This document shows positions 3,623 to 46,283 of a stretch of 64,000 bases of DNA, piece by piece. The DNA is from an uncultured Collinsella sp. Lineage in GTDB: Bacteria; Actinomycetota; Coriobacteriia; Coriobacteriales; Coriobacteriaceae. A program made the translations under genes and the position numbers. How positions within the stretch are numbered: position 1 is the stretch's first letter; every line of letters starts with the position of its first letter. The DNA lies in NCBI GenBank assembly GCA_900543505.1, contig UQSB01000002.1, forward strand, positions 15,663 to 79,662, read 5' to 3'. Under the pieces are notes generated by a model. That model was not told where the DNA came from. It searched no databases and saw only the letters and a list, made by a program, of their open reading frames with translations.

Positions 3623-6118
3623 TTAGCTAATTCCCACAAACATGCAGCCCGAGGTCGCCCCGCGTAGGCGGGCGGCGGGCTTGCGGCCGGCCTGCGCTGC
3701 TTCGACGGCGCGACGGACGCGGGCGACGGCACGGCCCACCTCATCCGTCTCGAGCAGCGTTCCGTCCACCATGAGACGACGCACGCCGGCATCGAGCAGC
3801 TGAGGAACCTGCGGCGTGAGGTCGATGGGGTAGGCATCGTACAGGCGAGAGCGGCCGTGGATATTGGTGCGGACGGGCATGACCTTTCCGTCGATATTCT
3901 TGAGAGAGAGCTTGCGGGCACGCAGACGGCAGTTGGCACAATCGTGGATGCAGCCGTTGGCAACCTGCAGAATGCAATGCTCGCTTGTCATGACGCGCGG
4001 GCGGCCAAAGACGGTGATGCCCAGAGCCGCGGGCGCGGCGGCGCCGAGCGAGACAATCTCGTCGAGCGTGATCTCGGGCGAGAGCCAAAACGCGCCGGCT
4101 CCGCGTTCGGCGAGTGCCTCCATGCAGGGCGTGTTGTGCACCGGCAGGCAAGAGCGAATCTCGGCCGTGGCGCCAACCTGGGCGGCCAGGGCAAGCTCAG
4201 AGATGTTGCCAATAGCGACCGTGGCGCCAGCAACAACCCATGGGTCAACGCGGACGTGGTCAACGGCGCGGCAGACCTCATCGAGCACGGGTACGATGCC
4301 CTGCTCAAACGTATCGGCGGGGGAGAGCTTGGCCGCATCGAGCGCGTCGGTGGTCATGTAGATGCGCGTTGCACCCTCCGCGCGAGCGGCCTCGGCGGCC
4401 TCGAGCGAGGTGACGGTAGCGCAGATCTGCGGCTCATCGCGGTAGTGCTCGGGCGCGGGGCGGGAATCATTGGTGACAGTCGCCGGTAGCTCGAGCGTGC
4501 GGGCGCGCTCCGCGTACGGCGCCAGAATGGCCTCTTCCAGCGCCTTGCAAGCGGCGGCGCGCACCTTATGTACGGCGGAGAAACCCATGCCACAGCCCTC
4601 ATCGAGCGCCACCTCAAAGCTCGCAGCCTCAAAGGGAGAGGAACCCATGCGGCCGACGTGCTCAACCAGATCGGACGCCTCGACCGCACGGGTCTTGGCG
4701 GCTTCGACGGTAAAGCCCGTGGCCGTGGCCGTAAGCGAAGGGTCGTCGCAGCAGGTGAGCGTAACGGTAAACGGCTCGCCCAGACGCGCCACGACGGACA
4801 CATCAACAGCTCGGCGGCGCAGCACATCGCGCTTGAGCGCGGCGCCGGCGGCGTCGATGGCACGCTGACTGCGAATCACGCGGACGCGGCAGCCCTCGGG
4901 CATGCTGCGGGGTACGCGACATTCGATGACTTCACCGGCTGCGGCATCATCGGCGGCAATGGTGGTCAGGAACTGGTCAAACTCGTTATCGTGGCGAAGC
5001 TCCAGCAGGTCGCCCTTGCCCACGGGCTCAAACAGCTCAATACGGGCGATGGCGGCGCGGCGACGGCGGTCGTCGGGCTTGAGGCCGCGCACATCGCGGT
5101 TGGCCGGGCGGCTGCCCAGCACCGTGCCCACGATCTGGCCGCGGTTGTTGGAACGCTCATAGCTCATCATCTCGTCGCCCGAGGTGCCGTCCTGATAGGC
5201 GTGCGTAAAGTCGCGGTTAAAGCAGCGCTTGAGCTGGCGCTGGCGGGCGTCTTTCTCGTCCTTGGCAACGGTGGTTCCGGCCAGCATGTCATCAATCTGA
5301 TGACGATACACGTCGACGATGGAATACACGTAATCGGGCGCCTTCATGCGGCCCTCGAGCTTGAGCGACGCGGCGCCGGCGTCATACAGGCGGCGAACAA
5401 GTTGTGAAGTGTTGGTGTCACGCGGGCACAGCGCGCGCTCGCGACCGGCAGGGGAGAGCGAGCGACCGTTCTCGTCGATCAGCTCGTAGGGCAAGCGGCA
5501 GGGCTGGGCGCACATGCCACGGTTGGCCGATCGTCCCGCCATGGCAAAGCTCGAAAGCAGACACAGGCCAGAGTAGCAAAAGCAGATGGCGCCATGGCTA
5601 AAGACCTCAAGGTCCACATCGGGCGCGGCATCGTGAATGGCGGCAATCTCGTCGATGGAAAGCTCGCGCGAGAGGGTCACGCGGTCGGCGCCCTGCTCGC
5701 GGCACCAAAGGGTTCCGCGGTCGTCGTGGATGTTCGCCTGGGTCGAGATATGCGTCTCGATGCCGGGCATCGTGCGCTTGACCTCAAAGAACAGGCCCCA
5801 GTCCTGGATGATGAAGGCGTCGGCGCCCAGCGTGGAGCAGCGATGGATGAGCTGCAGCGCATCGCTCATCTCGGATTCCTTGATGACGATGTTGACCGTG
5901 ACGTAGACGCGCGAGCCGGCCAGATGCGCGGCGCGGCAGGCCTGCTCAAAGGCCTCGTCGGTAAAGTTGGTGGCCTTGCGGCGTGCGTTGAAGCTGCCCA
6001 TGCCGCAGTAGATGGCGTCTGCCCCGGCGGCGAGCGCGGCGGCAAAGGGCTCCGGGCCTCCGGCGGGGGCCAAGAGTTCGGGTCTGCGGTTGGTGGTTCG
6101 ACTGGCGGTTGCGGTCAT
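3623..6118 (-). CDS. Peptidase U32 family protein (large, YegQ/YhbU-like with C-terminal extension)
   Basis: N-terminal ELLAPAGG...GADAIY...TQANI U32 signature; paralog at 46446..48422. Confidence 0.8.
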   Translation of the reverse strand: MTATASRTTNRRPELLAPAGGPEPFAAALAAGADAIYCGMGSFNARRKATNFTDEAFEQACRAAHLAGSRVYVTVNIVIKESEMSDALQLIHRCSTLGADAFIIQDWGLFFEVKRTMPGIETHISTQANIHDDRGTLWCREQGADRVTLSRELSIDEIAAIHDAAPDVDLEVFSHGAICFCYSGLCLLSSFAMAGRSANRGMCAQPCRLPYELIDENGRSLSPAGRERALCPRDTNTSQLVRRLYDAGAASLKLEGRMKAPDYVYSIVDVYRHQIDDMLAGTTVAKDEKDARQRQLKRCFNRDFTHAYQDGTSGDEMMSYERSNNRGQIVGTVLGSRPANRDVRGLKPDDRRRRAAIARIELFEPVGKGDLLELRHDNEFDQFLTTIAADDAAAGEVIECRVPRSMPEGCRVRVIRSQRAIDAAGAALKRDVLRRRAVDVSVVARLGEPFTVTLTCCDDPSLTATATGFTVEAAKTRAVEASDLVEHVGRMGSSPFEAASFEVALDEGCGMGFSAVHKVRAAACKALEEAILAPYAERARTLELPATVTNDSRPAPEHYRDEPQICATVTSLEAAEAARAEGATRIYMTTDALDAAKLSPADTFEQGIVPVLDEVCRAVDHVRVDPWVVAGATVAIGNISELALAAQVGATAEIRSCLPVHNTPCMEALAERGAGAFWLSPEITLDEIVSLGAAAPAALGITVFGRPRVMTSEHCILQVANGCIHDCANCRLRARKLSLKNIDGKVMPVRTNIHGRSRLYDAYPIDLTPQVPQLLDAGVRRLMVDGTLLETDEVGRAVARVRRAVEAAQAGRKPAARLRGATSGCMFVGIS

Positions 6119-14522: not shown

Positions 14523-17300
14523 ATGGCACAGGAATTCACTTTTACCGTTAACGGCGTCGAGCGCACGACGACCCAAAACAAACCGCTGCTGCGCTACCTG
14601 CGCGACGACCTGCATATTCACTCCGCCAAGGACGGCTGCTCCGAGGGCGCGTGCGGTACCTGCACCATCCATGTGGACGGTGCGGCCGTCAAGGCGTGCG
14701 TGCTGACCACCGCTCTTGCCGCCGGCCGTAATATCGTGACCGTCGAGGGCCTGCCCGAGGACGTGCGCGAGGCCTTTGTGTACGCCTTTGGCGCCGTGGG
14801 CGCCGTGCAGTGCGGTTTTTGCATCCCCGGCATGGTCATGGCGGGCGCTGCGCTTATCGCCGAGGACCCCGAGCCCACCGAGGAGCAGATCAAGTACGCC
14901 ATCCGTGGCAACGTCTGCCGCTGCACCGGCTACAAGAAGATCATCGAGGGTATTTCGCTGGCAGCTGCGGTGCTCCGCGGCGAAAAGCAGATCGACGAGG
15001 ACTTGGAGCGCGGCGACGACTACGGTGTGGGCAAGCGTGCCTTCCGTATCGACGTGCGCAAGAAGGTACTCGGCGAGGGCAAGTACCCCGACGACATCGA
15101 CGAGCTCGATCAGCCGGGTCTGACCTATGCCAGCGCCGTGCGCTCCAAGTATCCGCGCGCCCGTGTGCTCTCCATCGATACCTCCAAGGCCGAGGCCCTG
15201 CCCGGTGTGGTGGGCATCCTGCGCGCTGAGGACGTGCCGGTCAACCAGGTCGGCCACCTTATCCAGGATTGGGACGTCATGATCGCGGCGGGCGATATCA
15301 CCCGCTGCGTGGGCGATGCCATCGTGCTGGTGGTTGCCGAGGACGAGGCGACGCTCGAGAAGGCCAAGAAGCTCGTAAAGATTGATTACGAGCCGCTGGA
15401 GCCCGTGCGCAACATTGTCGAGGCCAGGGCTGCCGACGCCCCGCGCCTGCACGACAGTTTCTTTGCCTTTGGCAACACGGTGGAGCTCAAGGACAACGTG
15501 TGCCAGAGCCGTCACGTGACGCGCGGCGACGCCGCCAAGGCGCTGGCAGAGAGCGCGTTCACCGTGACGCAGCGCTTTACCACGCCCTTTACCGAGCATG
15601 CCTTCTTGGAGCCCGAGTGCGCCGTTGCCTTCCCGTACAAGAACGGCGTCAAGGTGCAGTCGACCGACCAGGGTGCCTACGACACGCGCAAAGAGTGTGC
15701 CCACATGTTTGGCTGGGACAACGAGCCCGAGCGCGTGGTCGTCGAGACCATGCTCGTGGGCGGCGGCTTTGGCGGTAAGGAGGACGTTTCGATCCAGCAC
15801 CTGGCCGCGCTTGCTGCCTATAAGCTCCAGCGTCCTGTGAAGTGCAAGCTCACGCGTGCCGAGTCGCTCGCGTTCCATCCCAAGCGTCATGCCATGGACG
15901 GCACCTTTACACTGGGCTGCGATGCCGAAGGCAACTTTACCGGCCTGGATTGCGAGATCAACTTTGATACCGGCGCCTACGCTTCGCTGTGCGGCCCGGT
16001 GCTCGAGCGTGCCTGCACGCATGCCGTCGGTCCCTACAAGTACCAGAACACCGACATCCGCGGCTTCGGCTACTACACTAACAACCCGCCTGCCGGCGCG
16101 TACCGTGGCTTTGGCGTTTGCCAGTCCGAGTTTGCGCTCGAGAGCCTGATCGACCTGCTGGCCGAGAAGGTCGGTTTGGATCCGTGGGAGATTCGCTACC
16201 GCAACGCCATCGAGCCGGGCGAGGTTCTGCCCAACGGCCAGATTGCCGACTGCTCCACGGCGCTTAAGGAGACGCTGCTCGAGGTCAAGGATGCCTACTA
16301 CGCGCATCCCGGACACGCTGGCATTGCCTGCGCCATGAAGAACGCCGGCGTGGGCGTGGGTCTGCCCGATGCCGGCCGCTGCAAGATTCGCGTCGAGGAT
16401 GGCCGCGCCGTGGTCTATGCCGCCACGTCCGACATCGGCCAGGGCTGCAACACGGTCTTTTTGCAGGACGTTGCCGAGGCCTGCGGTCTGCCGCTTCGCT
16501 GCATTGCCAACGGCGAGTGCTCCACCGAGAACGCTCCCGATTCCGGCACCACGTCTGGTTCGCGTCAGACGGTCGTGACCGGCGAGGCCGTGCGCGGTGC
16601 CGCTTTCCTGCTGCGCGACGCCATGGTTGGCATCGAGGCCGGCAAGCCTGCGCCCGCCGCTCCGGTGAGCGCGCATGGCGACGGCGTCAAGATCGAGTAC
16701 GACGACGGTCGCGCCTACCAGCTGCGCACACAGGAACTCGTCGCCGGCCAGGGTATGCATCCTCAGGACCCTGCGGCCACCATCAAGGCGCTCGAGGGAT
16801 GCGAGTTTGGCTACGTGTATCTGGAGCCGACCGACAAGCTGGGCGCCGATGTTCCCAACCCCAAGAGCCACATCTGCTACGGTTTTGCCACACATGTGGT
16901 CATTCTGGATGATGACGGCCGCGTGAGCGAGGTCTATGCCGCGCACGATTCCGGCAAGGTGGTCAACCCTATCTCCATCCAGGGTCAGATCGAAGGCGGC
17001 GTGCTCATGGGTATGGGCTATGCGCTTACCGAGGACTGGCCGCTCAAGGACTGCGTGCCCCAGGCCAGGTACGGCACGCTCGGACTGTTCCGTGCGCCCG
17101 AGATTCCGGATATCCACGCCATTTACGTGGAGAAGGACGAGCTGCTGCCCGTGGCATACGGCGGCAAGGGCATCGGCGAGATCGCAACGATCCCCACGGC
17201 GCCCGCCGTGCAGAACGCCTACTGCGCGTTTGACGGCAGGCTGCGTCCAAATCTGCCCATGGTGGATACGCCCTACAGCCGCGTCCGCAACCGCGGGTAG
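14523..17300 (+). CDS. xdhD: XdhD-type selenium-dependent molybdenum hydroxylase (fused 2Fe-2S plus molybdopterin-binding xanthine dehydrogenase family protein)
   Basis: N-terminal 2Fe-2S cysteine pattern (CSEGACGTC, CGFC, CRCTGY) and a large aldehyde oxidase/xanthine dehydrogenase Mo-binding domain, 925 aa. Confidence 0.8.
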   Translation: MAQEFTFTVNGVERTTTQNKPLLRYLRDDLHIHSAKDGCSEGACGTCTIHVDGAAVKACVLTTALAAGRNIVTVEGLPEDVREAFVYAFGAVGAVQCGFCIPGMVMAGAALIAEDPEPTEEQIKYAIRGNVCRCTGYKKIIEGISLAAAVLRGEKQIDEDLERGDDYGVGKRAFRIDVRKKVLGEGKYPDDIDELDQPGLTYASAVRSKYPRARVLSIDTSKAEALPGVVGILRAEDVPVNQVGHLIQDWDVMIAAGDITRCVGDAIVLVVAEDEATLEKAKKLVKIDYEPLEPVRNIVEARAADAPRLHDSFFAFGNTVELKDNVCQSRHVTRGDAAKALAESAFTVTQRFTTPFTEHAFLEPECAVAFPYKNGVKVQSTDQGAYDTRKECAHMFGWDNEPERVVVETMLVGGGFGGKEDVSIQHLAALAAYKLQRPVKCKLTRAESLAFHPKRHAMDGTFTLGCDAEGNFTGLDCEINFDTGAYASLCGPVLERACTHAVGPYKYQNTDIRGFGYYTNNPPAGAYRGFGVCQSEFALESLIDLLAEKVGLDPWEIRYRNAIEPGEVLPNGQIADCSTALKETLLEVKDAYYAHPGHAGIACAMKNAGVGVGLPDAGRCKIRVEDGRAVVYAATSDIGQGCNTVFLQDVAEACGLPLRCIANGECSTENAPDSGTTSGSRQTVVTGEAVRGAAFLLRDAMVGIEAGKPAPAAPVSAHGDGVKIEYDDGRAYQLRTQELVAGQGMHPQDPAATIKALEGCEFGYVYLEPTDKLGADVPNPKSHICYGFATHVVILDDDGRVSEVYAAHDSGKVVNPISIQGQIEGGVLMGMGYALTEDWPLKDCVPQARYGTLGLFRAPEIPDIHAIYVEKDELLPVAYGGKGIGEIATIPTAPAVQNAYCAFDGRLRPNLPMVDTPYSRVRNRG

Positions 17301-17379
17301 GGTAGGGCGCGGACAGTCATTGCTGACGAGCTGTTCGCGCTCAACATCAACTGCATATGCTGCACCTTTGGCCCCAGCT

Positions 17380-17570
17380 CCATCGCGAGCCGGGGCCTTT
17401 TGTTTGGAGCGGAAACTGTGTCCCGGAATTGCCACTCAGAACGGGACGCGCTTTCCGGATGGCATGCTTGGCGGAAACTACGGCCCAGTTTTTGGCTCCA
17501 GAACGGGGTACATTTTCCGGAACGGTCCACGTGCGGGGGTGTACCGCCCCTTTTCGTGCTCCGCTTGTCG
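17380..17570. repeat. Left array of about 62-bp palindromic repeat units (half-sites GGAAAnnGCGTCCC / GGGAyGCnnTTTCC) ending in a 36-bp motif that is directly repeated at 19255-19290
   Basis: Read directly: ggaaactgtgtcccgg...gggacgcgctttccgg, ggaaactacggccc...ggggtacattttccgg. Confidence 0.6.
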
Positions 17571-17582
17571 GATTACGTTATA

Positions 17583-17643
17583 GCTAGACATATTATAGGA
17601 AGGTATAATATAGCTAGCTATAACGTAAAGGAAGGATGGCCCT
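17583..17643 (+). promoter_or_regulatory. AT-rich promoter region of the ATPase-nuclease gene with a 12-bp-arm palindrome (cgttatagctag...ctagctataacg) and a -10-like GGTATAATAT
   Basis: Direct reading; sharp GC drop relative to flanks. Confidence 0.4.
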
Positions 17644-19035
17644 ATGTTTATCGGAAGAACAGTGGAAATGTCCGAGCTCAATCGACTGTATGGCACGGGC
17701 TCCTTTGAAATGCCTGTGATTTACGGCCGCCGTCGTGTGGGTAAAACGCGCCTTATCACAGAGTTCATCCAAGGCAAGAAGGCTATTTACTTTCAAGCTC
17801 GTCGTACCAATGCGGAGGCAAACCTGCACGGCTTTAGCCAGGCGATACTTGCAGGCTCGGTTGGTGCTGCAGGCGTGTCGTTTCGTAGTTTTGACGAAGC
17901 GTTCGATGCATTGGCCACCATGGCTCGAGCGGAACGTTTGATTGTCGTGATTGACGAGTATCCCTATCTCGCCCAATCGAATCCCGAGATCAGCTCGTTG
18001 CTGCAAGACAAGATTGATCACCTGTACAAAGAGACCAGGCTCATGCTGATTCTATGCGGCTCGTCTCTTTCGTTTATGGAGGAACAGGTATTGGGCTACG
18101 AGAGCCCACTATACGGTAGGCGTACGGCCCAGTTTAAGATCATGCCGCTCGATTTTACGACGACCCTCGGCCTGTGGCAGAGCATGGGTCGCGAAGACGC
18201 TGCGGTTTGCTATGGCATGACGGGCGGCATTCCTGCATATATCGAGAAAGTCGATCCTACCGTATCGCTCAAGGACAACATCAAGCGTCTTTTTCTTACC
18301 CCTACGGGTTATCTCTTTGAAGAGCCGAGTAACCTGCTATTGCAAGAGTGCCGCAATCCCGAGCAATATGATGCGATCGTGCAAGCAATTGCTCAGGGGC
18401 GCTCGAAGATCTCGGAGATTGCGAGCTCTACGGGAATCCCTGCGAGCAACGTAAAGAGCTATGTGGATAAGCTGGCGTCGCTTGGGATTGTCGAGCGCGA
18501 GCTGCCCCTAAACGAGACGAGCAATAAGCGGGCTGTGTATCTGCTGAGCGACCAGATGTTTAGGTTCTGGTACAAGTTTGTGCCGCAGAACATTGGGCTG
18601 ATTCAAAACGATATGGCCGAGATGGCGTATAAGCGCATTGAGCCGCACATATCGGATTACATGGGTACGGTCTTTGAGCTTATATGCAGACAATACGTGT
18701 ACGAACTCGCGCGTGCGGGCCAGCTCGATGTGGTTCCGGCGAGCGTCGGGCGCTGGTGGGGGACGGATAATCGCACGCATACGCAGGAAGAAATCGACTT
18801 GATTGTTGACGATGGCGAGGGCACTGCGCTGTTTGCGGAGTGCAAATGGCGCAATGAACCGGCGGGCGAAGACGTGCTGCAAAAGCTCGTTCATCGAAGC
18901 GAGCTCTTTAGACGGCAACGAAAAAGCTATGCGCTTTTCTCAAAAAGCGGCTTTACGCAGGGATGTCGGGATGCCGCGGAGAGTAGGGGAGACGTCAAGC
19001 TGATCTCGTTTGCCGAGATGTGCGAGCGGAGATAA
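17644..19035 (+). CDS. COG1672-type AAA+ ATPase fused to a DUF234 PD-(D/E)xK nuclease-like C-terminal domain
   Basis: Walker A GRRRVGKT, Walker B LIVVIDEY, winged-helix segment, C-terminal D...EIDLIVDD...AECKWRN (D-ExK) motif; local GC clearly below genome average. Confidence 0.75.
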   Translation: MFIGRTVEMSELNRLYGTGSFEMPVIYGRRRVGKTRLITEFIQGKKAIYFQARRTNAEANLHGFSQAILAGSVGAAGVSFRSFDEAFDALATMARAERLIVVIDEYPYLAQSNPEISSLLQDKIDHLYKETRLMLILCGSSLSFMEEQVLGYESPLYGRRTAQFKIMPLDFTTTLGLWQSMGREDAAVCYGMTGGIPAYIEKVDPTVSLKDNIKRLFLTPTGYLFEEPSNLLLQECRNPEQYDAIVQAIAQGRSKISEIASSTGIPASNVKSYVDKLASLGIVERELPLNETSNKRAVYLLSDQMFRFWYKFVPQNIGLIQNDMAEMAYKRIEPHISDYMGTVFELICRQYVYELARAGQLDVVPASVGRWWGTDNRTHTQEEIDLIVDDGEGTALFAECKWRNEPAGEDVLQKLVHRSELFRRQRKSYALFSKSGFTQGCRDAAESRGDVKLISFAEMCERR

Positions 19036-19049
19036 CCAAGCGCTCTGAT

Positions 19050-19330
19050 GTGATGCTCGGAATGGGACGCGCTTTCCCCTTGCGGCCTTTGGCGGAAAGC
19101 GCGTCCCAGATTATAGCTCCAGAGTGGGATGGCCTTTCCGGATCGGCCCCTCGCGGAAACTGCGTCCCGGATTCGATGCTCAGGACGGGATGCCGTTTCC
19201 GATAGAGGCATGGGGTGGAAAGCCTCCCATTTCTAATGTTCAAGAAATGGGAGGCAGCTCATCGCGAGCTGGGCCTTTTGTTTGGAGCGGAGGCAGCATC
19301 CCAGAATTCGGGCAATCCGGTGGTCAGGGG
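19050..19330. repeat. Right array of about 4 units of the same 62-bp palindromic repeat (gggacgcgctttcc...ggaaagcgcgtccc etc.) plus the terminal direct repeat catcgcgagcygggccttttgtttggagcgga
   Basis: Direct reading; units are individually hairpin-forming. Confidence 0.6.
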
Positions 19331-19369
19331 TTGAGCGAGCGTCGCGCTAAGGATGCCAAGCGTAAAACT

Positions 19370-19450
19370 TTCAATGAACATAGCGTAAAAACTACATCCG
19401 CAACGGCGTAAAAACTACATTGGAAGTAGCGTAAAATCCGCATTGAAAAT
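19370..19450. repeat. Four degenerate tandem copies of a 23-bp unit (rGCGTAAAAACTACAT...)
   Basis: Direct reading. Confidence 0.5.
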
Positions 19451-19474
19451 GGCGTAATTTCGTATATCGCATGA

Positions 19475-19800
19475 TTGCCCGAGCTTGCACACGGCCTTTT
19501 GCGAGCTCTTGCCATGAACGAGAGCCAGGCTGTCACGTACAAGACGCTCATAAAGGACGCCTCGTACGGTGAGGCGGGCCCCGACGAGAGGACCATCGCT
19601 GCGTACCTGGATCTCTTCAACAGGCTCAAGCTGACCGAGGACCTGTGCGGAGTTTTGGCTTGGCTGCCAGGTTGTGGAAGTTGCGCTCGCTGCGCACGGA
19701 GAAATTGTCCATACGGACTCCTTTCATCGATGTTGGCAGGGCCACCGTGCCTCTTGGCCGGTTGGCGTCGGGATCGTGGAGCCAACTCTCTACCCCGACT
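19475..19800 (+). pseudogene. Frameshifted remnant of an AAA_14/DUF4143-family ATPase (C-terminal half only)
   Basis: LLRALAMNESQAVTYKTLIKDA...RTIAAYLDLFNRLKLTE matches the DUF4143 pattern, then continues in another frame (KLRSLRTEKLSIRTPFIDVG, ORF 19645..19923). Confidence 0.4.
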
Positions 19801-19894
19801 CTGGATAAAACGCGCCCGCTCCTTGCGGGCACGATGGAGTCTATCAGCGCGCGCGGATGGCGCTTGATTTCCCAAGTGATTATTCGGCTTTCAT

Positions 19895-20015
19895 CCGGAA
19901 AAGTGTCGAAATCAGCCGTGTAAAAGTACGGAAAAGTGTCGAAATAGGCACCTTAAAACTTCGGAAAAGTGTCAAATTCGATGGGCAAATTATCCGGAAA
20001 AGTGTAGCTGGATGA
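19895..20015. repeat. Four tandem copies of a 32-bp iteron-like unit with core CCGGAAAAGTGTCGAAAT
   Basis: Direct reading; inter-core segments are themselves degenerate copies, so this is not a spacer-containing array. Confidence 0.55.
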
Positions 20016-20075: not shown

Positions 20076-21062
20076 CTACTCGTCGTCCCCGTCGTTAGGG
20101 TCGCCCTTGAGGGTGTTGATGTCCAGGTACTGGTTATCGTCCTCTTTTTGTTGGGTCTCCGACTCCGCTTGGGTGGGGCCGCGGAACAGCTGGAATCCCT
20201 CAAACGCAATGACACCGAGCAGGGCAATGATAATGGCGATAAAGGCAACCTTGACTGCCTGCGGAAATTCCGAGAAACGCAGCGCCTTTTCCTCGGCGTA
20301 ATAATCGGCGAAGCGCTCTTCGCCCGTGCTTTTGGTATACGACGGCGCGGACGCGGCCTCCGAGTCATATTCCGGTGCAGGCGTGGCAGCGTACGGATCG
20401 TTGAGATAATCGCTCGATGCGGTGCCATAATCCTCGGTCTCGATGCGACCGGTGCCAGCATAGCCATCGGAATAATCGGAATATGCCGCACCGCCCTCAT
20501 AGTCCGCGGCGCTCGTGTTGGCGGCAAAAAGCGGGTTAACTGGAACATCGAGCGCCGGCATGCCGGTAGAGGTCTCATCCAGATCGGCTGCAGCCCACGA
20601 ATCGTAGGCAACCTGACGGGCAACGGGCTCATCGAGCCTTGCGACTGGAGGCTTGCGTGCCGCAGGAACAGGCAACTGCTGGGCGCTGTACATAACAGTG
20701 CTGTCGGCCGATTTGCCCTGCGTCGCTGCAGCGAGAAATGCCGCCGTCTCGGACGGGTCGCTTGCGGGGCGGGGAGCGGGTGTGGGCGCCGAAGTGGGTG
20801 CGGGCGTAGGCGCGGGCGTCGAAACGGGCGACTGCGCAGGAGTCGGCGCAGATGCGGGCTTAGGCGCAAGTGCGGGGTTGGGGTTTGACGGGCGAGCCCC
20901 GCCGCCCATGAGTTCGTCGGCGGTCCACGGGCGATCATCCATCACGTCGTCAAGGCTCAGCGAAAACAGGTCGTCTTCACCCTCATCGAACATGCGGTGC
21001 ACATGTCCACCAATTGCCGGAATCAATCCGCGACCGGTGCATGATGCCTTGCTCAACGCCAT
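20076..21062 (-). CDS. Pro/Ala-rich, predicted tail-anchored membrane protein (about 270 aa disordered N-terminal region, single C-terminal TM helix)
   Basis: Strong GC3 bias; AAAGGA RBS before the ATG at 21062; TM segment VKVAFIAIIIALLGVIAF. Confidence 0.55.
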   Translation of the reverse strand: MALSKASCTGRGLIPAIGGHVHRMFDEGEDDLFSLSLDDVMDDRPWTADELMGGGARPSNPNPALAPKPASAPTPAQSPVSTPAPTPAPTSAPTPAPRPASDPSETAAFLAAATQGKSADSTVMYSAQQLPVPAARKPPVARLDEPVARQVAYDSWAAADLDETSTGMPALDVPVNPLFAANTSAADYEGGAAYSDYSDGYAGTGRIETEDYGTASSDYLNDPYAATPAPEYDSEAASAPSYTKSTGEERFADYYAEEKALRFSEFPQAVKVAFIAIIIALLGVIAFEGFQLFRGPTQAESETQQKEDDNQYLDINTLKGDPNDGDDE

Positions 21063-44066: not shown

Positions 44067-46283
44067 TTAGCCGACCGTATCGTCAGGCGTGGGCGAGGGG
44101 TCGGGAGTGGGCGTAGGCGTAGGCGTGCCGCCATCGCCGCCGGTCGAGCCACCAGTGGAGCCGCCCGTCGAGCCACCAGTGGAGCCGCCCGTCGAGCCAC
44201 CGGTCGTACCGGTGCCGCCGGTGGTGTCGCCGCCCGTGGTCTCGGTGGTCGTGGTCGTCGTGGTAGTTGTTGTGGTGGTTTCCTCTTCCTCTTCGTCCTC
44301 GTCCTTGTCGTCGTTCTCCGACTTCTTGGTGTTGTTGGTGCCGTAGAACTTCCAGACGCTGTTGTTCTTGTAGGTGGGCGCCGTTCCGGTCGCAAACTCC
44401 TCGCGCTCGGTACCGGTCAGAACGGTGTTCATAAACCGCTTAAAGACAGGCAGGTTGGTGCTGTCGCCCAGCAGGTCCGTGCCGTACTTTTGGATGGGGA
44501 TCTCGCCCGCGGAATAGCCGGTCCACAGGGCGCACGCCAGCTGCGGGGTATAGCCGCAGAACCAAAGGTTGGTGGTGTTGTCGGTGGTGCCCGTCTTGCC
44601 GGCATAGGGCTGGTTGACACTCAGGGCGCCGGCAGCACCCGTACCGCTGCCCTTCATGACGCCGGACAGAACATCGGTGACCGCGGCGGCCTCGCCCTCG
44701 GTAAGCACCTGTGAGGGATTGTCGGTGTGCTGGTACAGCACCGAACCGGTACGAGAATCAATCTCGGTGATGGCGATCGGCTGGCGATAGTAGCCGCCGT
44801 TGGCAAACGTCGCGTAGGCGGCGGCCATCTCGAGTGGCGAGATCGAGCCGGTGCCGAGCGTCATGACGGGAACGTCCTCGATGTTGTCCTTGGCGGGGTC
44901 GATGCCGAGCTTTTTGACGAGCGAGATGATCTTGCTGTTGCCGACGGCTTCCGCCACCTGGATGTAGCCGGTGTTGGAGGAGTATGCCGTCGCCTGCTTA
45001 AGCGTGATGTTGCCGTAGCTCTGGTTGGCGTAATTTTGGACCTCGGTCGTGGTGCCCTTGGCCTTGAGCGGCGAGTTGCAGTTGAGGGTGACGTTGGGGT
45101 TCATGCCGTTTTGGATGGCAGTTGCCAGCGTAAAGGCCTTAAAGGTGGAGCCGACGGGACGCTTGGCCGTGGCATGGTTTACGTGGTTCTCGTCGGCGTT
45201 GTAGTCGTAGCCGCCCACCATGCACTTGATGTAGCCGGTCTTGGGGTCGACGACGACCATGCCCATGTCCAGGCCGTCAAGCGAGAGCGTGTCGAGCTGC
45301 TCGCGGACGGCATTCTCTGCCACCTGCTGCATCGTGGGGTCGATGGTGGTCTTGACGGTCAGGCCGCCCTTAAAGAGCACGTCGGTCGAGAACTCCTGCT
45401 CCAGCAGCTGCTTGACGTAGGAGACAAAGTAGGGCTGCGAGTATACGTCGACGCCGCTGCCCGAGATTTCGGTCACGTTGAGGGTGATGGGCTCGGCCTG
45501 TGCGGCATCGTGCTCCTCCTGGGTGATGTGGCCCAGGCGCAGCATGTTGTCGAGAACCTTGTTGCGGCGAGACAGTGCCAGATCGGGATTGACCGTGGGG
45601 TCGTACTGCGAAGGCGAGTTGGGAAGGCCGATGAGTAGCGCGGCCTCGCTCAGGGTGAGGTCGGCGGCGCTCTTGGACAGATAGGTCTCGGCTGCGGCCT
45701 CGATGCCGTAGGCGCCGTGGCCGTAATAGATGGTGTTGAGGTACATCATGAGGATCTCGTCTTTGGAGTACATGTCCTCCATCTTGATGGCGATGTAGGC
45801 CTCGCGCACCTTACGCTCAATGGTCGAGTCGAATTGCTCCTCCTGCAGGATGGTGTTGCGCACAAGCTGCTGGGTGATCGTCGAGGCGCCTTCGTGCCCG
45901 CCGCCGAGGGTTGCCACCGCAGCACGCGCGATACCCCACAGGTCGATACCGCCGTGCTCGTAGAAGCGCTCGTCCTCGACGTCAACGGTGCCCTGCAGCA
46001 CGTAGGGGGAGACCTCGTCCTTGGTGATGGACTTGCGGTTTTGCGTGTAGAAGCTCGCGATCTTGTTGCCGTTACAGTCGACGATCTCGGTGGGCTCGCT
46101 CACCAGATACGCGTTGGCGTCGGTGTAGTCGGGCAGATCGGACAGCCAGCGGTTGACGTTACCGACCATGCCGATGCCAAACGCCACGCCCGCAATCAGC
46201 AGAAAGCCCAAAAACGAGAGCAGGATTATGGGCAGGGCGTGCGTCTTTGAACGGCTGTGTCCCTGTCGTTGGCGAGGACCCAT
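44067..46283 (-). CDS. Class A penicillin-binding protein (transglycosylase plus transpeptidase) with Thr-run and (GGST)n low-complexity C-terminal tail
   Basis: GT51 motifs (EDERFYEHGGID), SxxK/KTG transpeptidase motifs, N-terminal TM; start at MGPRQ with a GGAGG RBS; the ORF track begins 41 codons earlier. Confidence 0.85.
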   Translation of the reverse strand: MGPRQRQGHSRSKTHALPIILLSFLGFLLIAGVAFGIGMVGNVNRWLSDLPDYTDANAYLVSEPTEIVDCNGNKIASFYTQNRKSITKDEVSPYVLQGTVDVEDERFYEHGGIDLWGIARAAVATLGGGHEGASTITQQLVRNTILQEEQFDSTIERKVREAYIAIKMEDMYSKDEILMMYLNTIYYGHGAYGIEAAAETYLSKSAADLTLSEAALLIGLPNSPSQYDPTVNPDLALSRRNKVLDNMLRLGHITQEEHDAAQAEPITLNVTEISGSGVDVYSQPYFVSYVKQLLEQEFSTDVLFKGGLTVKTTIDPTMQQVAENAVREQLDTLSLDGLDMGMVVVDPKTGYIKCMVGGYDYNADENHVNHATAKRPVGSTFKAFTLATAIQNGMNPNVTLNCNSPLKAKGTTTEVQNYANQSYGNITLKQATAYSSNTGYIQVAEAVGNSKIISLVKKLGIDPAKDNIEDVPVMTLGTGSISPLEMAAAYATFANGGYYRQPIAITEIDSRTGSVLYQHTDNPSQVLTEGEAAAVTDVLSGVMKGSGTGAAGALSVNQPYAGKTGTTDNTTNLWFCGYTPQLACALWTGYSAGEIPIQKYGTDLLGDSTNLPVFKRFMNTVLTGTEREEFATGTAPTYKNNSVWKFYGTNNTKKSENDDKDEDEEEEETTTTTTTTTTTTETTGGDTTGGTGTTGGSTGGSTGGSTGGSTGGSTGGDGGTPTPTPTPDPSPTPDDTVG

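Follow-up and report, generated by a model that had tools for sequence, protein, structure and literature searches.

Phased inverted-repeat arrays of a Collinsella-wide family around candidate defence genes at a variable locus

In the 64-kb window studied here (the whole stretch of Collinsella DNA that was analysed, 64,000 nucleotides), an ATPase_2-DUF234 gene is bracketed by arrays of 62-bp inverted-repeat units, two on its left and 2.5 on its right. We consider it probable, though well short of certain, that these arrays belong to a Collinsella-wide family of intergenic repeats that are recognised by a protein and recombine in register at a hot spot for defence genes. The half-sites would be recognised by a putative protein on double-stranded DNA, and the arrays would behave like the BIMEs of E. 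coli and the NIMEs of Neisseria, being intergenic, often placed after terminators, variable in unit number among strains, and a source of portable homology.

The units are built from a 14-bp half-site, GGAAA-N6-CCC, whose orientation in the window flips at alternate distances of 32 and 30 bp; the half-sites of type A (GGAAAN6CCC) and of the inverse type a (GGGN6TTTCC) are listed in Table 1 together with the other features of the locus. The strict unit pattern has 4 matches in the window versus 0 in 100 dinucleotide-preserving shuffles, so that the palindromic units of about 62 bp described around the gene in the initial annotation are genuine. A profile HMM trained on 341 units from other genomes recognises exactly 4.5 units in both strands of the 64 kb (E values from 1e-11 to 1e-14), and this search found no units there outside the left and right arrays of the ATPase gene. 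The earlier count of 2 units on the left stands, but the 'about 4' on the right must be replaced by 2.5 intact units, placed in the 3' region of the gene ahead of a terminator copy, and two further degenerate half-sites. Likewise, the palindrome quoted earlier as a perfect example of the unit is real (19063-19077 / 19094-19108, a 15-bp stem), but it joins a half-site a to the next A over the linker and therefore is not a single unit.

Table 1. Positions in the window of the repeat arrays, the cargo gene and the flanking elements.
Feature	Coordinates	Strand	Remarks
Intrinsic terminator of the xanthine-dehydrogenase-family gene	17370-17405	+	Hairpin GGCCCCAGCTC / GAGCCGGGGCC, then TTTTGTTT
Direct repeat, left copy	~17376-17413	+	Inner terminator stem, loop, 3' arm, T-tract, GGAGCGGA
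Left array, 2 units	17411-17518		A 17411-17424, a 17443-17456, A 17473-17486, a 17505-17518
AT-rich 25-nt inverted repeat with TATAAT	17573-17628		92% complementary, between array and ATPase start
Cargo gene, 463 aa	17644-19035	+	ATPase_2, winged-helix and DUF234/Mrr_cat-like (Pfam)
Right array, 2.5 units	19064-19200		a 19064, A 19094, a 19126, A 19155, a 19187
Degenerate half-site GGAAAGCCTCCC overlapping a hairpin	19217-19255	+	Half-site 19217-19228; perfect 13-bp hairpin 19222-19234 / 19243-19255
Direct repeat, right copy	~19256-19291	+	Partial terminator copy, scores terminator-like
Degenerate half-site GGAGGCAGCATCCC, then conserved right flank AGAATTCGGGCAATCCGGTGGTCAGGGGTTGAGCGAGCG	19289-19347	+	Half-site 19289-19302

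A pattern of 1.5 units matches at least 120 genomic stretches, and 76 of the 80 matches listed are named Collinsella; copies of the unit elsewhere, for which a genome-wide count had been proposed in the initial annotation, thus do exist, mostly beside unrelated housekeeping genes. The flanking ORFs form 92 clusters, the gene contexts number at least 44, and the neighbours include DnaK, AspRS, LacI-type regulators, sulfatase and MupG. In the window, as in at least 44 other contexts, the 46-bp A-loop-a units lie between genes, and the arrays commonly start 0-40 nt past the T-tract of a terminator. Their geometry is strict: A is followed by a at 32 bp in 396 cases, a is followed by A at 30 bp in 229 cases and at 29 bp in 61, and only about 6 internal half-sites are missing across the arrays surveyed. 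The half-site consensus is GGAAA-SYGYR-TCCC, with the middle five bases loosely conserved, and a unit consists of two such sites, inverted, with an 18-nt polar 'loop' and a 15-16-nt linker between sites; the spacers are fixed in length and nearly random in sequence, with semi-conserved ends. The presence of one locus per 64 kb suggests tens of arrays per genome rather than hundreds. The closest relatives of a unit usually lie outside its own array (median minimum distance 21/62 within and 13/62 elsewhere, a comparison biased by sample size that allows only a weak conclusion on amplification), and local tandem amplification of the units is weakly disfavoured by these distances. A phage origin of the arrays was also considered and set aside: IMG/VR yielded only 2 matches (L211 and L212), and L212 consists of flanking host DNA next to a probable att site of a prophage. 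The top-ranked paper in a full-text literature search on Collinsella palindromic intergenic repeats does not contain this family.

At the locus of the window, defence candidates occupy a variable hot spot in the gap after the terminator of an upstream xanthine-dehydrogenase-family gene (xdh-like; CDS 14523-17300, identity by Pfam). The terminator, whose hairpin and U-tract are displayed by a Spot_42-like Rfam alignment, is kept in 80 of 80 metagenomic alleles; in the same alleles the left arrays span 0-10 units and the cargo is absent, p332 (AbiEi-like), the S27 ATPase, or both, with units always present where p332 or S27 is present. Other strains hold different cargo, for example type I restriction-modification and PDC-S01 (PADLOC/Pfam). 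The fullest alleles consist of terminator, array, p332, array, ATPase (PDC-S27), array, a hairpin with a partial terminator copy, and a solo half-site, in this order; in the empty alleles, which have no cargo, one half-site (GGAGGCAGCATCCC) and the right flank come directly after the single terminator. The earlier suggestion that the gene had been captured by a repeat array is partly supported, insofar as a polymorphic array surrounds the gene and cargo-free strains with a single half-site exist, but specificity for the ATPase is not supported, the family being genus-wide.

The cargo ATPase matches the PADLOC profile PDC-S27 (E 3.3e-62, residues 2-428) and is a candidate defence protein of that type; its gene has a GC content of about 52% versus 63-66% in the flanking genes. 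The AT-rich inverted repeat ahead of the gene, which in the allele L001 is conserved together with it, is likely its promoter/operator. Four other loci with paralogues of the ATPase (64-73% identity) contain no repeat units, and a specific linkage between ATPase and arrays was rejected on these grounds.

The direct repeat (33-36 nt) that delimits the repeat block at its outer edges, noted previously and real, is the 3' part of the terminator of the xdh-like gene: inner stem, loop, 3' arm and TTTTGTTT. The cores of its two copies differ by 2 mismatches and a 1-nt indel, and a weaker similarity extends through the next half-site (38 nt, 84%). BLAST matches are confined to the xdh-like/ATPase locus, which excludes the direct repeat from the 62-bp family. 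Both copies are present in 12 metagenomic alleles and in the window type, and one copy in the empty alleles; about 17 occupied alleles lack the right-hand copy together with the degenerate half-site GGAAAGCCTCCC and the hairpin overlapping it, about 72 bp in all (comparison with L115, right-junction classes). We therefore take the 36-bp direct repeat to be a locus-specific terminator duplication in one sub-lineage, with no part in a transposon or in the repeat family.

Unit 1 of the window is a chimera of two units of the longer allele L001: its first 31 nt match unit 5644 of L001 at 29/31 positions and its last 31 nt match unit 5768 at 31/31. Unit 2 is identical to unit 5830 of L001 (62/62). 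Judging from such alignments, the window allele would be a deletion derivative with breakpoints in register within the repeats, from which array 1 and p332 have gone along with two more units. Recombination in register, between two arrays or between two copies of the terminator, could yield all alleles seen other than the fullest, that of the window included, and empty sites formed in this way would retain one terminator and one half-site. Register is kept at the junctions examined, and from these we infer the general rule. An array-flanked cassette inserting at a solo half-site or at a terminator would give the same alleles as deletion.

In a second explanation, which we regard as rather unlikely, the half-sites are bound by a recombinase or transposase that is dedicated to them, has its gene at another place, and would insert, excise and invert array-flanked cassettes, much as hypothesised for dRS3/NIME arrays or as in integron and pdif modules; in its fuller form, which merits similarly little confidence, a putative Collinsella enzyme would also build the arrays and move candidate phage-defence genes. 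Such an enzyme would account for array-flanked cargo at two unrelated loci, as a second cassette, encoding an fn3 protein of 1384 aa, has arrays on either side in L050 and L100 and is absent from L113 and L019, where there is a single array, just as the empty alleles of the first locus keep one half-site. The conserved cores with free spacers and the varied defence cargo at the hot spot also agree with it, as does polarity: when this is assigned by the rGAAT...AGAAy signature of the loop, 45 of 124 arrays contain units of both polarities, and L001, where 5 units precede another 5 in the inverted orientation, fits an inversion between inverted half-sites. However, no recombinase, integrase, transposase or cas genes were found within +/- 6 kb of the locus, and we know of no phage or recombinase that uses the Collinsella half-site. 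One deletion junction of the window allele falls in the variable loop, off any fixed core position, and the junction of L130, an allele without the right array, is a CGCGCT microhomology. Furthermore, most arrays are without cargo and adjoin housekeeping genes, and the ATPase paralogues elsewhere lack units.

With regard to the chemical nature of the target, the pattern of conservation argues for phased sites of protein recognition along double-stranded DNA rather than for an RNA element, because the cores and the spacer lengths are conserved, the spacers are nearly random in sequence, and there is neither covariation nor orientation bias; it is solely this pattern and the phasing that point to protein binding. 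Within arrays the pairwise identity of loop centres and linkers is 0.41-0.43, and the conservation of the cores at this level is partly circular, since the units were located by their cores. Orthologous arrays provide a non-circular comparison, in 3 ortholog groups only, with divergences of 4.9% in the cores, 19.6% in the spacers and 9.2% in the outside flanks. The 62-bp period corresponds to about six helical turns, which would place all half-sites on the same face of the helix. More generally, cores that are conserved across a genus-wide family whose spacers vary freely imply some DNA-binding or DNA-processing partner.

The opposing view, that the units act as RNA or single-strand hairpins in 3' UTRs, with the classical REP role of terminating transcription or stabilising mRNA, seems to us unlikely. 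In its favour are the palindromic form of the units, the position of the right array between the stop codon of the ATPase and a terminator, the folding of 19036-19300 as RNA (z = -5.2), and an excess of convergent over divergent gene contexts (13 vs 6). The left array, however, folds no better than shuffled sequences (z = -1.07), and no covariation is present at the variable stem positions (pairing 4.15 vs 4.14 +/- 0.04 after shuffling), whether A is paired with the next a or a with the next A. Unit polarity is random with respect to the neighbouring genes (98 co-oriented, 101 opposed), and many arrays begin just past a terminator, hence outside transcripts. A scan of the window and of 8 array-rich loci against Rfam, at gathering and permissive thresholds, returned no family matching the arrays. 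Still, the perfect palindromes found in places (15-bp stem) and the folding of the right-hand region make a hairpin role possible at some sites. Chance microRNA-like hairpins were the only hits of these Rfam scans at the arrays.

A selfish origin of the REP/RAYT type, in which the units are miniature mobile DNA that a Y1 (IS200-like) transposase disseminates, with the arrays as by-products, concerns the spread of the arrays and as such is compatible with the role proposed here for them. The layout is indeed that of BIMEs (alternating, extragenic, variable in copy number, confined to one genus), but the GTAG/CGTC terminal tag is missing, the 14-bp half-site is not palindromic by itself, and there is no transposase near the arrays examined; we thus hold this origin to be improbable. 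Finally, the earlier proposal that the repeats are the termini of a small non-autonomous transposon with the ATPase as its cargo, suggested by the repeats and direct repeat that flank the gene, is hardly credible in view of the dozens of cargo-free array contexts, of the paralogues without units, of a direct repeat that is locus-specific and missing from about 17 occupied alleles, and of 136 array ends with no conserved outer module, terminal inverted repeats or target duplications, which also led us to reject the MITE class.

Collinsella is an abundant genus of the human gut with extreme strain diversity, and at two loci, including a hot spot for defence genes, the repeat family coincides with the breakpoints at which genes are gained and lost. 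Should the arrays promote the exchange of cassettes, the turnover of the defence repertoire in Collinsella would be easier to explain, and the old NIME hypothesis could be put to a tractable test; if a recombinase is involved, they would be the counterpart, in a Gram-positive gut commensal, of what has been hypothesised for neisserial dRS3/NIME arrays. The arrays can also serve to type strains, in the way of variable-number tandem repeats, and are likely to break assemblies and to be called falsely as CRISPR arrays or structured RNAs.

Among known systems, BIMEs, which are arrays of REP sequences, have a similar layout. REP elements usually exceed 100 copies per genome. BIMEs are described as consisting of regularly spaced units of alternating orientation (PMC2817692). 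The Collinsella arrays are likewise extragenic, regularly spaced with alternation at 32 and 29-30 bp, variable in unit number among strains, often 3' of genes and restricted to a lineage. However, whereas REP families have terminal GTAG/CGTC in >90% of members (PMC3733652), GTAG occurs anywhere in 8% of the 341 Collinsella units and CGTC at its commonest offset in 23%. Moreover, the conserved 14-bp element forms no hairpin alone, the spacers vary in sequence where BIMEs have typed linker motifs, the density looks far lower (one locus, 4.5 units, per 64 kb), and the host is an actinobacterium (Coriobacteriia) rather than a member of the Enterobacteria or Pseudomonas.

The likeness to NIMEs (dRS3 arrays) is one of behaviour only. 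Both systems combine short conserved inverted-repeat elements with variable segments, are dynamic among strains and flank variable genes, and the exchange of array-flanked genes proposed for NIMEs (to our knowledge long hypothesised and never demonstrated) fits the alleles at the xdh-like locus. Nevertheless, the dRS3 pattern ATTCCC-N8-GGGAAT is found in 0 of 341 Collinsella units and 0 times in the window, the spacers are fixed at 15-18 bp against 50-150 bp in NIMEs, and the phylum is another one.

Integron attC and pdif sites are also imperfect palindromes that bracket cargo, with single genes present or absent at one locus. Integrons have an intI integrase gene next to attC sites with RYYYAAC / GTTRRRY cores. 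The Collinsella locus differs in that there is no integrase (within +/- 6 kb) or Xer-type site nearby, the core motif occurs in 10% of the 341 units (judged about chance), many tandem sites enclose no cargo and most arrays are unrelated to any, and the cargo comes with a promoter-like region of its own. CRISPR arrays have direct repeats with unique spacers of about 25-40 nt and usually cas genes; as the initial annotation rightly held, the present arrays are not of this kind, since their repeats alternate in orientation, their spacers are 15-18 nt long and they have no cas neighbours. Islands flanked by att sites share with the locus the direct repeats at both ends and the single copy in the empty site, but about 17 occupied alleles are without the second copy and there is no integrase. 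Defence islands, integration hot spots and, in Neisseria, the 'minimal mobile elements' occupy a fixed position between conserved genes and vary in cargo; the Collinsella site does the same, with PDC-S27, PDC-S01, AbiEi-like and type I restriction-modification cargo and with empty alleles, and differs in that its internal breakpoints match dispersed repeats, beyond the conserved flanking genes alone.

The palindromic units that the initial annotation described on both sides of the ATPase gene are present in the sequence, and consist of a 14-bp half-site, GGAAA-N6-CCC (A), alternating with its inverse, GGG-N6-TTTCC (a). The strict unit pattern has 4 matches in the window versus 0 in 100 dinucleotide-preserving shuffles, and a profile HMM of 341 units from other genomes finds exactly the window's 4.5 units, both strands equally, with no further unit anywhere else in the 64 kb. 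The direct repeat claimed at the outer edges was recovered in a repeat search of the window and is real: it comprises the 3' portion of the upstream xdh-like gene's intrinsic terminator and, after this, the beginning of a half-site. The GC content of the enclosed ATPase gene is ~52%, versus 63-66% for neighbouring genes, and it matches PADLOC candidate PDC-S27 (E 3e-62). The AT-rich inverted repeat directly upstream of its start probably serves this cargo gene, whose product carries a winged-helix domain, as promoter or operator.

Coordinates of features in the window and in the other genome or metagenome stretches (L-numbers) compared with it
Feature	Stretch	Position	Details
xdh-like gene	window	14523-17300	upstream of array; xanthine dehydrogenase/aldehyde oxidase family (Pfam)
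Direct repeat	window	about 17376-17413; about 19256-19291	left and right copies
Left array half-sites	window	17411, 17443, 17473, 17505	alternating A/a; left of ATPase gene
AT-rich inverted repeat	window	17573-17628	25 nt, 92% complementary, contains TATAAT
ATPase cargo gene	window	17644-19035	ATPase_2, winged-helix and DUF234 protein (Pfam)
Right array half-sites	window	19064, 19094, 19126, 19155, 19187	alternating A/a; right of ATPase gene
23-bp direct repeats	window	19359-19457	four copies (AGCGTAAAAACTACATTGGAAAT)
AAA_14-DUF4143 remnant	window	19477-19651	175 bp, internal; follows the 23-bp repeats
SAM riboswitch match	window	19721-19811, on to about 19652 (- strand)	45.1 vs gathering threshold 44.4
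33-bp repeats	window	19896-19977	2.5 copies of CGGAAAAGTGTCGAAATAAGCACCTTAAAACTA
328-aa gene	window	20076-21062 (- strand)	conserved, proline/alanine-rich; no match in Pfam
Dense short tandem repeats	window	44136-44318	periods 12, 15, 24 bp; probably repetitive coding sequence
Empty alleles	L135, L150, L151, L153, L167-L169, L171, L190, L195, L202		terminator, one half-site, conserved right flank
~300-bp segment	L155; L210	2560-2870; 1476-1790	between half-site remnant and 33-bp repeats
Long left array	L001	3652-4196	five units, then five inverted units
~180-bp direct repeat	L115	about 330-490, 1290-1470	brackets ATPase 3' fragment and its array
Cargo after terminator	L175	5621-12702	RNase_T-like exonuclease, unknown 452-aa protein, type I restriction-modification HsdR and HsdM
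Cargo after terminator	L162	10715-14384	HTH_3 protein, another AAA_14-DUF4143 ATPase
fn3 gene between two arrays	L050; L100	166-5266 (L050)	1384-aa fn3-containing protein
Same flanks, no fn3 gene	L113; L019	3001-3200 (L113)	single array
Array and duplicated 35-mer	L212 (IMG/VR contig)	95-294, 326-358, 541-568	35-mer resembles tRNA 3' end

Scanned against one genome per species, a 1.5-unit pattern matches at least 120 stretches of genomes. Among the matches listed, 76 of 80 are from named Collinsella, the remaining four being Coriobacteriaceae or bins suspected of misassignment, and the ATPase locus itself accounts for only 4 of 120 stretches. The window itself comes from a Collinsella-type organism of the human gut. 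The flanking ORFs, called crudely from stop to stop, can be grouped into at least 92 clusters, and no fewer than 44 distinct contexts are represented (tandem 25, convergent 13, divergent 6 among the matches listed), with neighbours that include DnaK, aspartyl-tRNA synthetase, LacI-family regulators, sulfatase, a Na/H exchanger, patatin, MupG, MGMT, a GH1 glycosidase and HAD hydrolases. Given this distribution over matches and contexts, the family is an intergenic repeat dispersed across the genus rather than something that belongs to the ATPase; paralogues of the latter at four other loci (64-73% identity) have no repeat units. Many arrays start 0-40 nt past a terminator T-tract, and comparison of array ends found no conservation outside the arrays. 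The duplicated 35-mer in L212 is probably a pair of prophage att sites, and the adjoining array seems to belong to the host flank, not to the phage.

The anatomy of the unit was taken from 120 of these stretches, all in other genomes. Among the matches listed, A-to-a steps measure 32 bp (396 cases) and a-to-A steps either 30 bp (229 cases) or 29 bp (61 cases), and almost no internal half-sites are missing; the half-site consensus is GGAAA-SYGYR-TCCC. The 18-nt A-to-a segment is polar, not palindromic (rGAAT-N8-AGAAy on one strand), and thus gives the unit an orientation, which is uniform in 79 and mixed in 45 of the arrays among the matches listed. A period of 62 bp amounts to about six helical turns and half of it to about three, so that the half-sites would all face one side of the duplex. 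The long left array of L001 is also an imperfect inverted duplication of ~300 bp, with arms of 207 nt that are 71% complementary and fold with z = -21.

Alleles of the locus were collected through exact-protein look-ups and then from 80 metagenomic contigs, with the 3' end of the xdh-like gene as the anchor. The look-ups yielded the window type and a longer type, in which 10.5 units, p332 (a minus-strand 332-aa gene with a weak AbiEi match, E 0.0014) and 4 more units lie between terminator and ATPase. Among the 80 contigs the left array ranges from 0 to 10 units; some contigs have no cargo, others p332 or the ATPase by itself, or the two together; whenever p332 or the ATPase is present, units are present. 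In the shortest alleles (L155, L210) the next conserved gene lies 580-613 bp past the xdh-like gene. Their ~300-bp segment looks, by eye, like a minus-strand transposase or integrase gene fragment, and both keep the 33-bp repeats, which in the window adjoin the 3' end of the 328-aa gene. In about 17 occupied alleles the last half-site directly abuts the right flank, without duplicated terminator, while in 12 metagenomic alleles and the window type a ~72-bp segment, made of a hairpin and a partial terminator copy, intervenes; the 36-bp direct repeat is thus confined to this locus and, within it, to one sub-lineage. Empty alleles whose variant half-site is GGAGGCAGCATCCC, or nearly so, correspond to the duplicated-terminator type, and those with GGAAACTGCGTCCC to the other type, a pattern that repeated deletion and integration at the terminator would equally produce. 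Each copy of the ~180-bp repeat in L115 encodes, on the minus strand, a small hydrophobic peptide of ~37 aa, which might be a toxin-like gene product.

By its gene content, the position after the xdh-like terminator is a hot spot for candidate defence-type cargo: besides the ATPase and p332, it holds different sets of genes in L175 and L162, and an AAA_14-DUF4143 gene (PADLOC PDC-S01, E 1e-62) is intact in L130 (431 aa) and reduced in the window to its remnant. Array-bounded gain or loss is not unique to the ATPase locus, as the fn3 locus shows likewise. The 23-bp direct repeats sit immediately upstream of the intact gene in L130, and are probably its operator or promoter. Behind the SAM riboswitch match, on the minus strand, come a ribosome-binding site, an ATG and only ~20 codons, after which the sequence runs into an unrelated gene remnant; this has the appearance of a riboswitch left orphaned by truncation of the gene it regulated, and L001 shows the same arrangement.

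In our best reading, the arrays are phased, putatively protein-recognised intergenic repeats acting as portable homology, and the allele series would arise at the hot spot from recombination of one array with another and of one terminator copy with the other. Confidence is high in the descriptive part of this reading and moderate in protein binding and homologous recombination. Compared with the long allele, the window allele appears to have lost array 1, p332 and two more units. Its unit 1 is chimeric, the first 31 nt corresponding to the L001 unit at 5644 (29/31) and the last 31 to that at 5768 (31/31), and its unit 2 is identical to the L001 unit at 5830 (62/62); both deletion junctions are in register within repeats, one of them in a variable loop. 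L130 is without the right array and right repeat copy, and its junction shows CGCGCT microhomology. The junctions of both alleles resemble products of unequal homologous recombination or of slippage rather than of fixed-site cleavage. The main rival, a dedicated site-specific system with the half-sites as its targets, would account for arrays that bound the cassettes, for the single half-site kept in empty alleles and for the mixed unit polarities; however, there is no recombinase among the genes within 6 kb on either side of the locus, the window and L130 junctions are at no fixed position, and most arrays are without cargo. The earlier proposal that the repeats are transposon ends is contradicted.

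A role of the units as RNA is a weaker alternative. At the variable stem positions, pairing of A with the following a scores 4.15 versus 4.14 ± 0.04 for shuffled partners, and the alternative pairing 4.02 versus 3.94 ± 0.05; at stem position 10 the frequencies of G-C, G-T, A-C and A-T are exactly as independence predicts. Unit polarity relative to the adjacent gene is co-oriented in 98 and opposed in 101 cases among the matches listed, and an Rfam search returned no family matching the arrays. Compared with shuffled sequence, the left array shows no excess of folding (z = -1.07). The right region does show one (z = -5.2), owing to a single perfect 15-bp palindrome and, apart from it, a 13-bp hairpin. 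Within arrays, where core conservation is partly circular, identity amounts to only 41-43% in loop centres and linkers, both of fixed length. Orthologous arrays of species-level genomes (three ortholog groups) diverge by 4.9% in cores, 14.9% in half-site centres, 19.6% in spacers and 9.2% in outside flanks. Conserved cores, fixed geometry, free spacers and no covariation or strand bias favour, with moderate confidence, half-sites that would be read by a protein on duplex DNA over an RNA element. A REP/RAYT origin, likewise weaker, is opposed by GTAG and CGTC tags in 8% and 23% of units here, versus over 90% of members in REP families (PMC3733652).

Integrons and MITEs were considered and ruled out, and the view that this is not a CRISPR array is borne out. 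The family has no description in Rfam, nor was one found in a limited literature search. Alternating, regularly spaced, extragenic units are shared with BIMEs (PMC2817692); unlike BIMEs, the Collinsella units lack the GTAG/CGTC tag signature, and their conserved element is not itself a hairpin. With NIME arrays (PMC1797815) they share short conserved inverted elements, variable spacers, array dynamics and variable genes alongside, but they are without dRS3, and their spacers are short and of fixed length. The Collinsella arrays are best read as a new family, resembling BIME and NIME arrays in behaviour.
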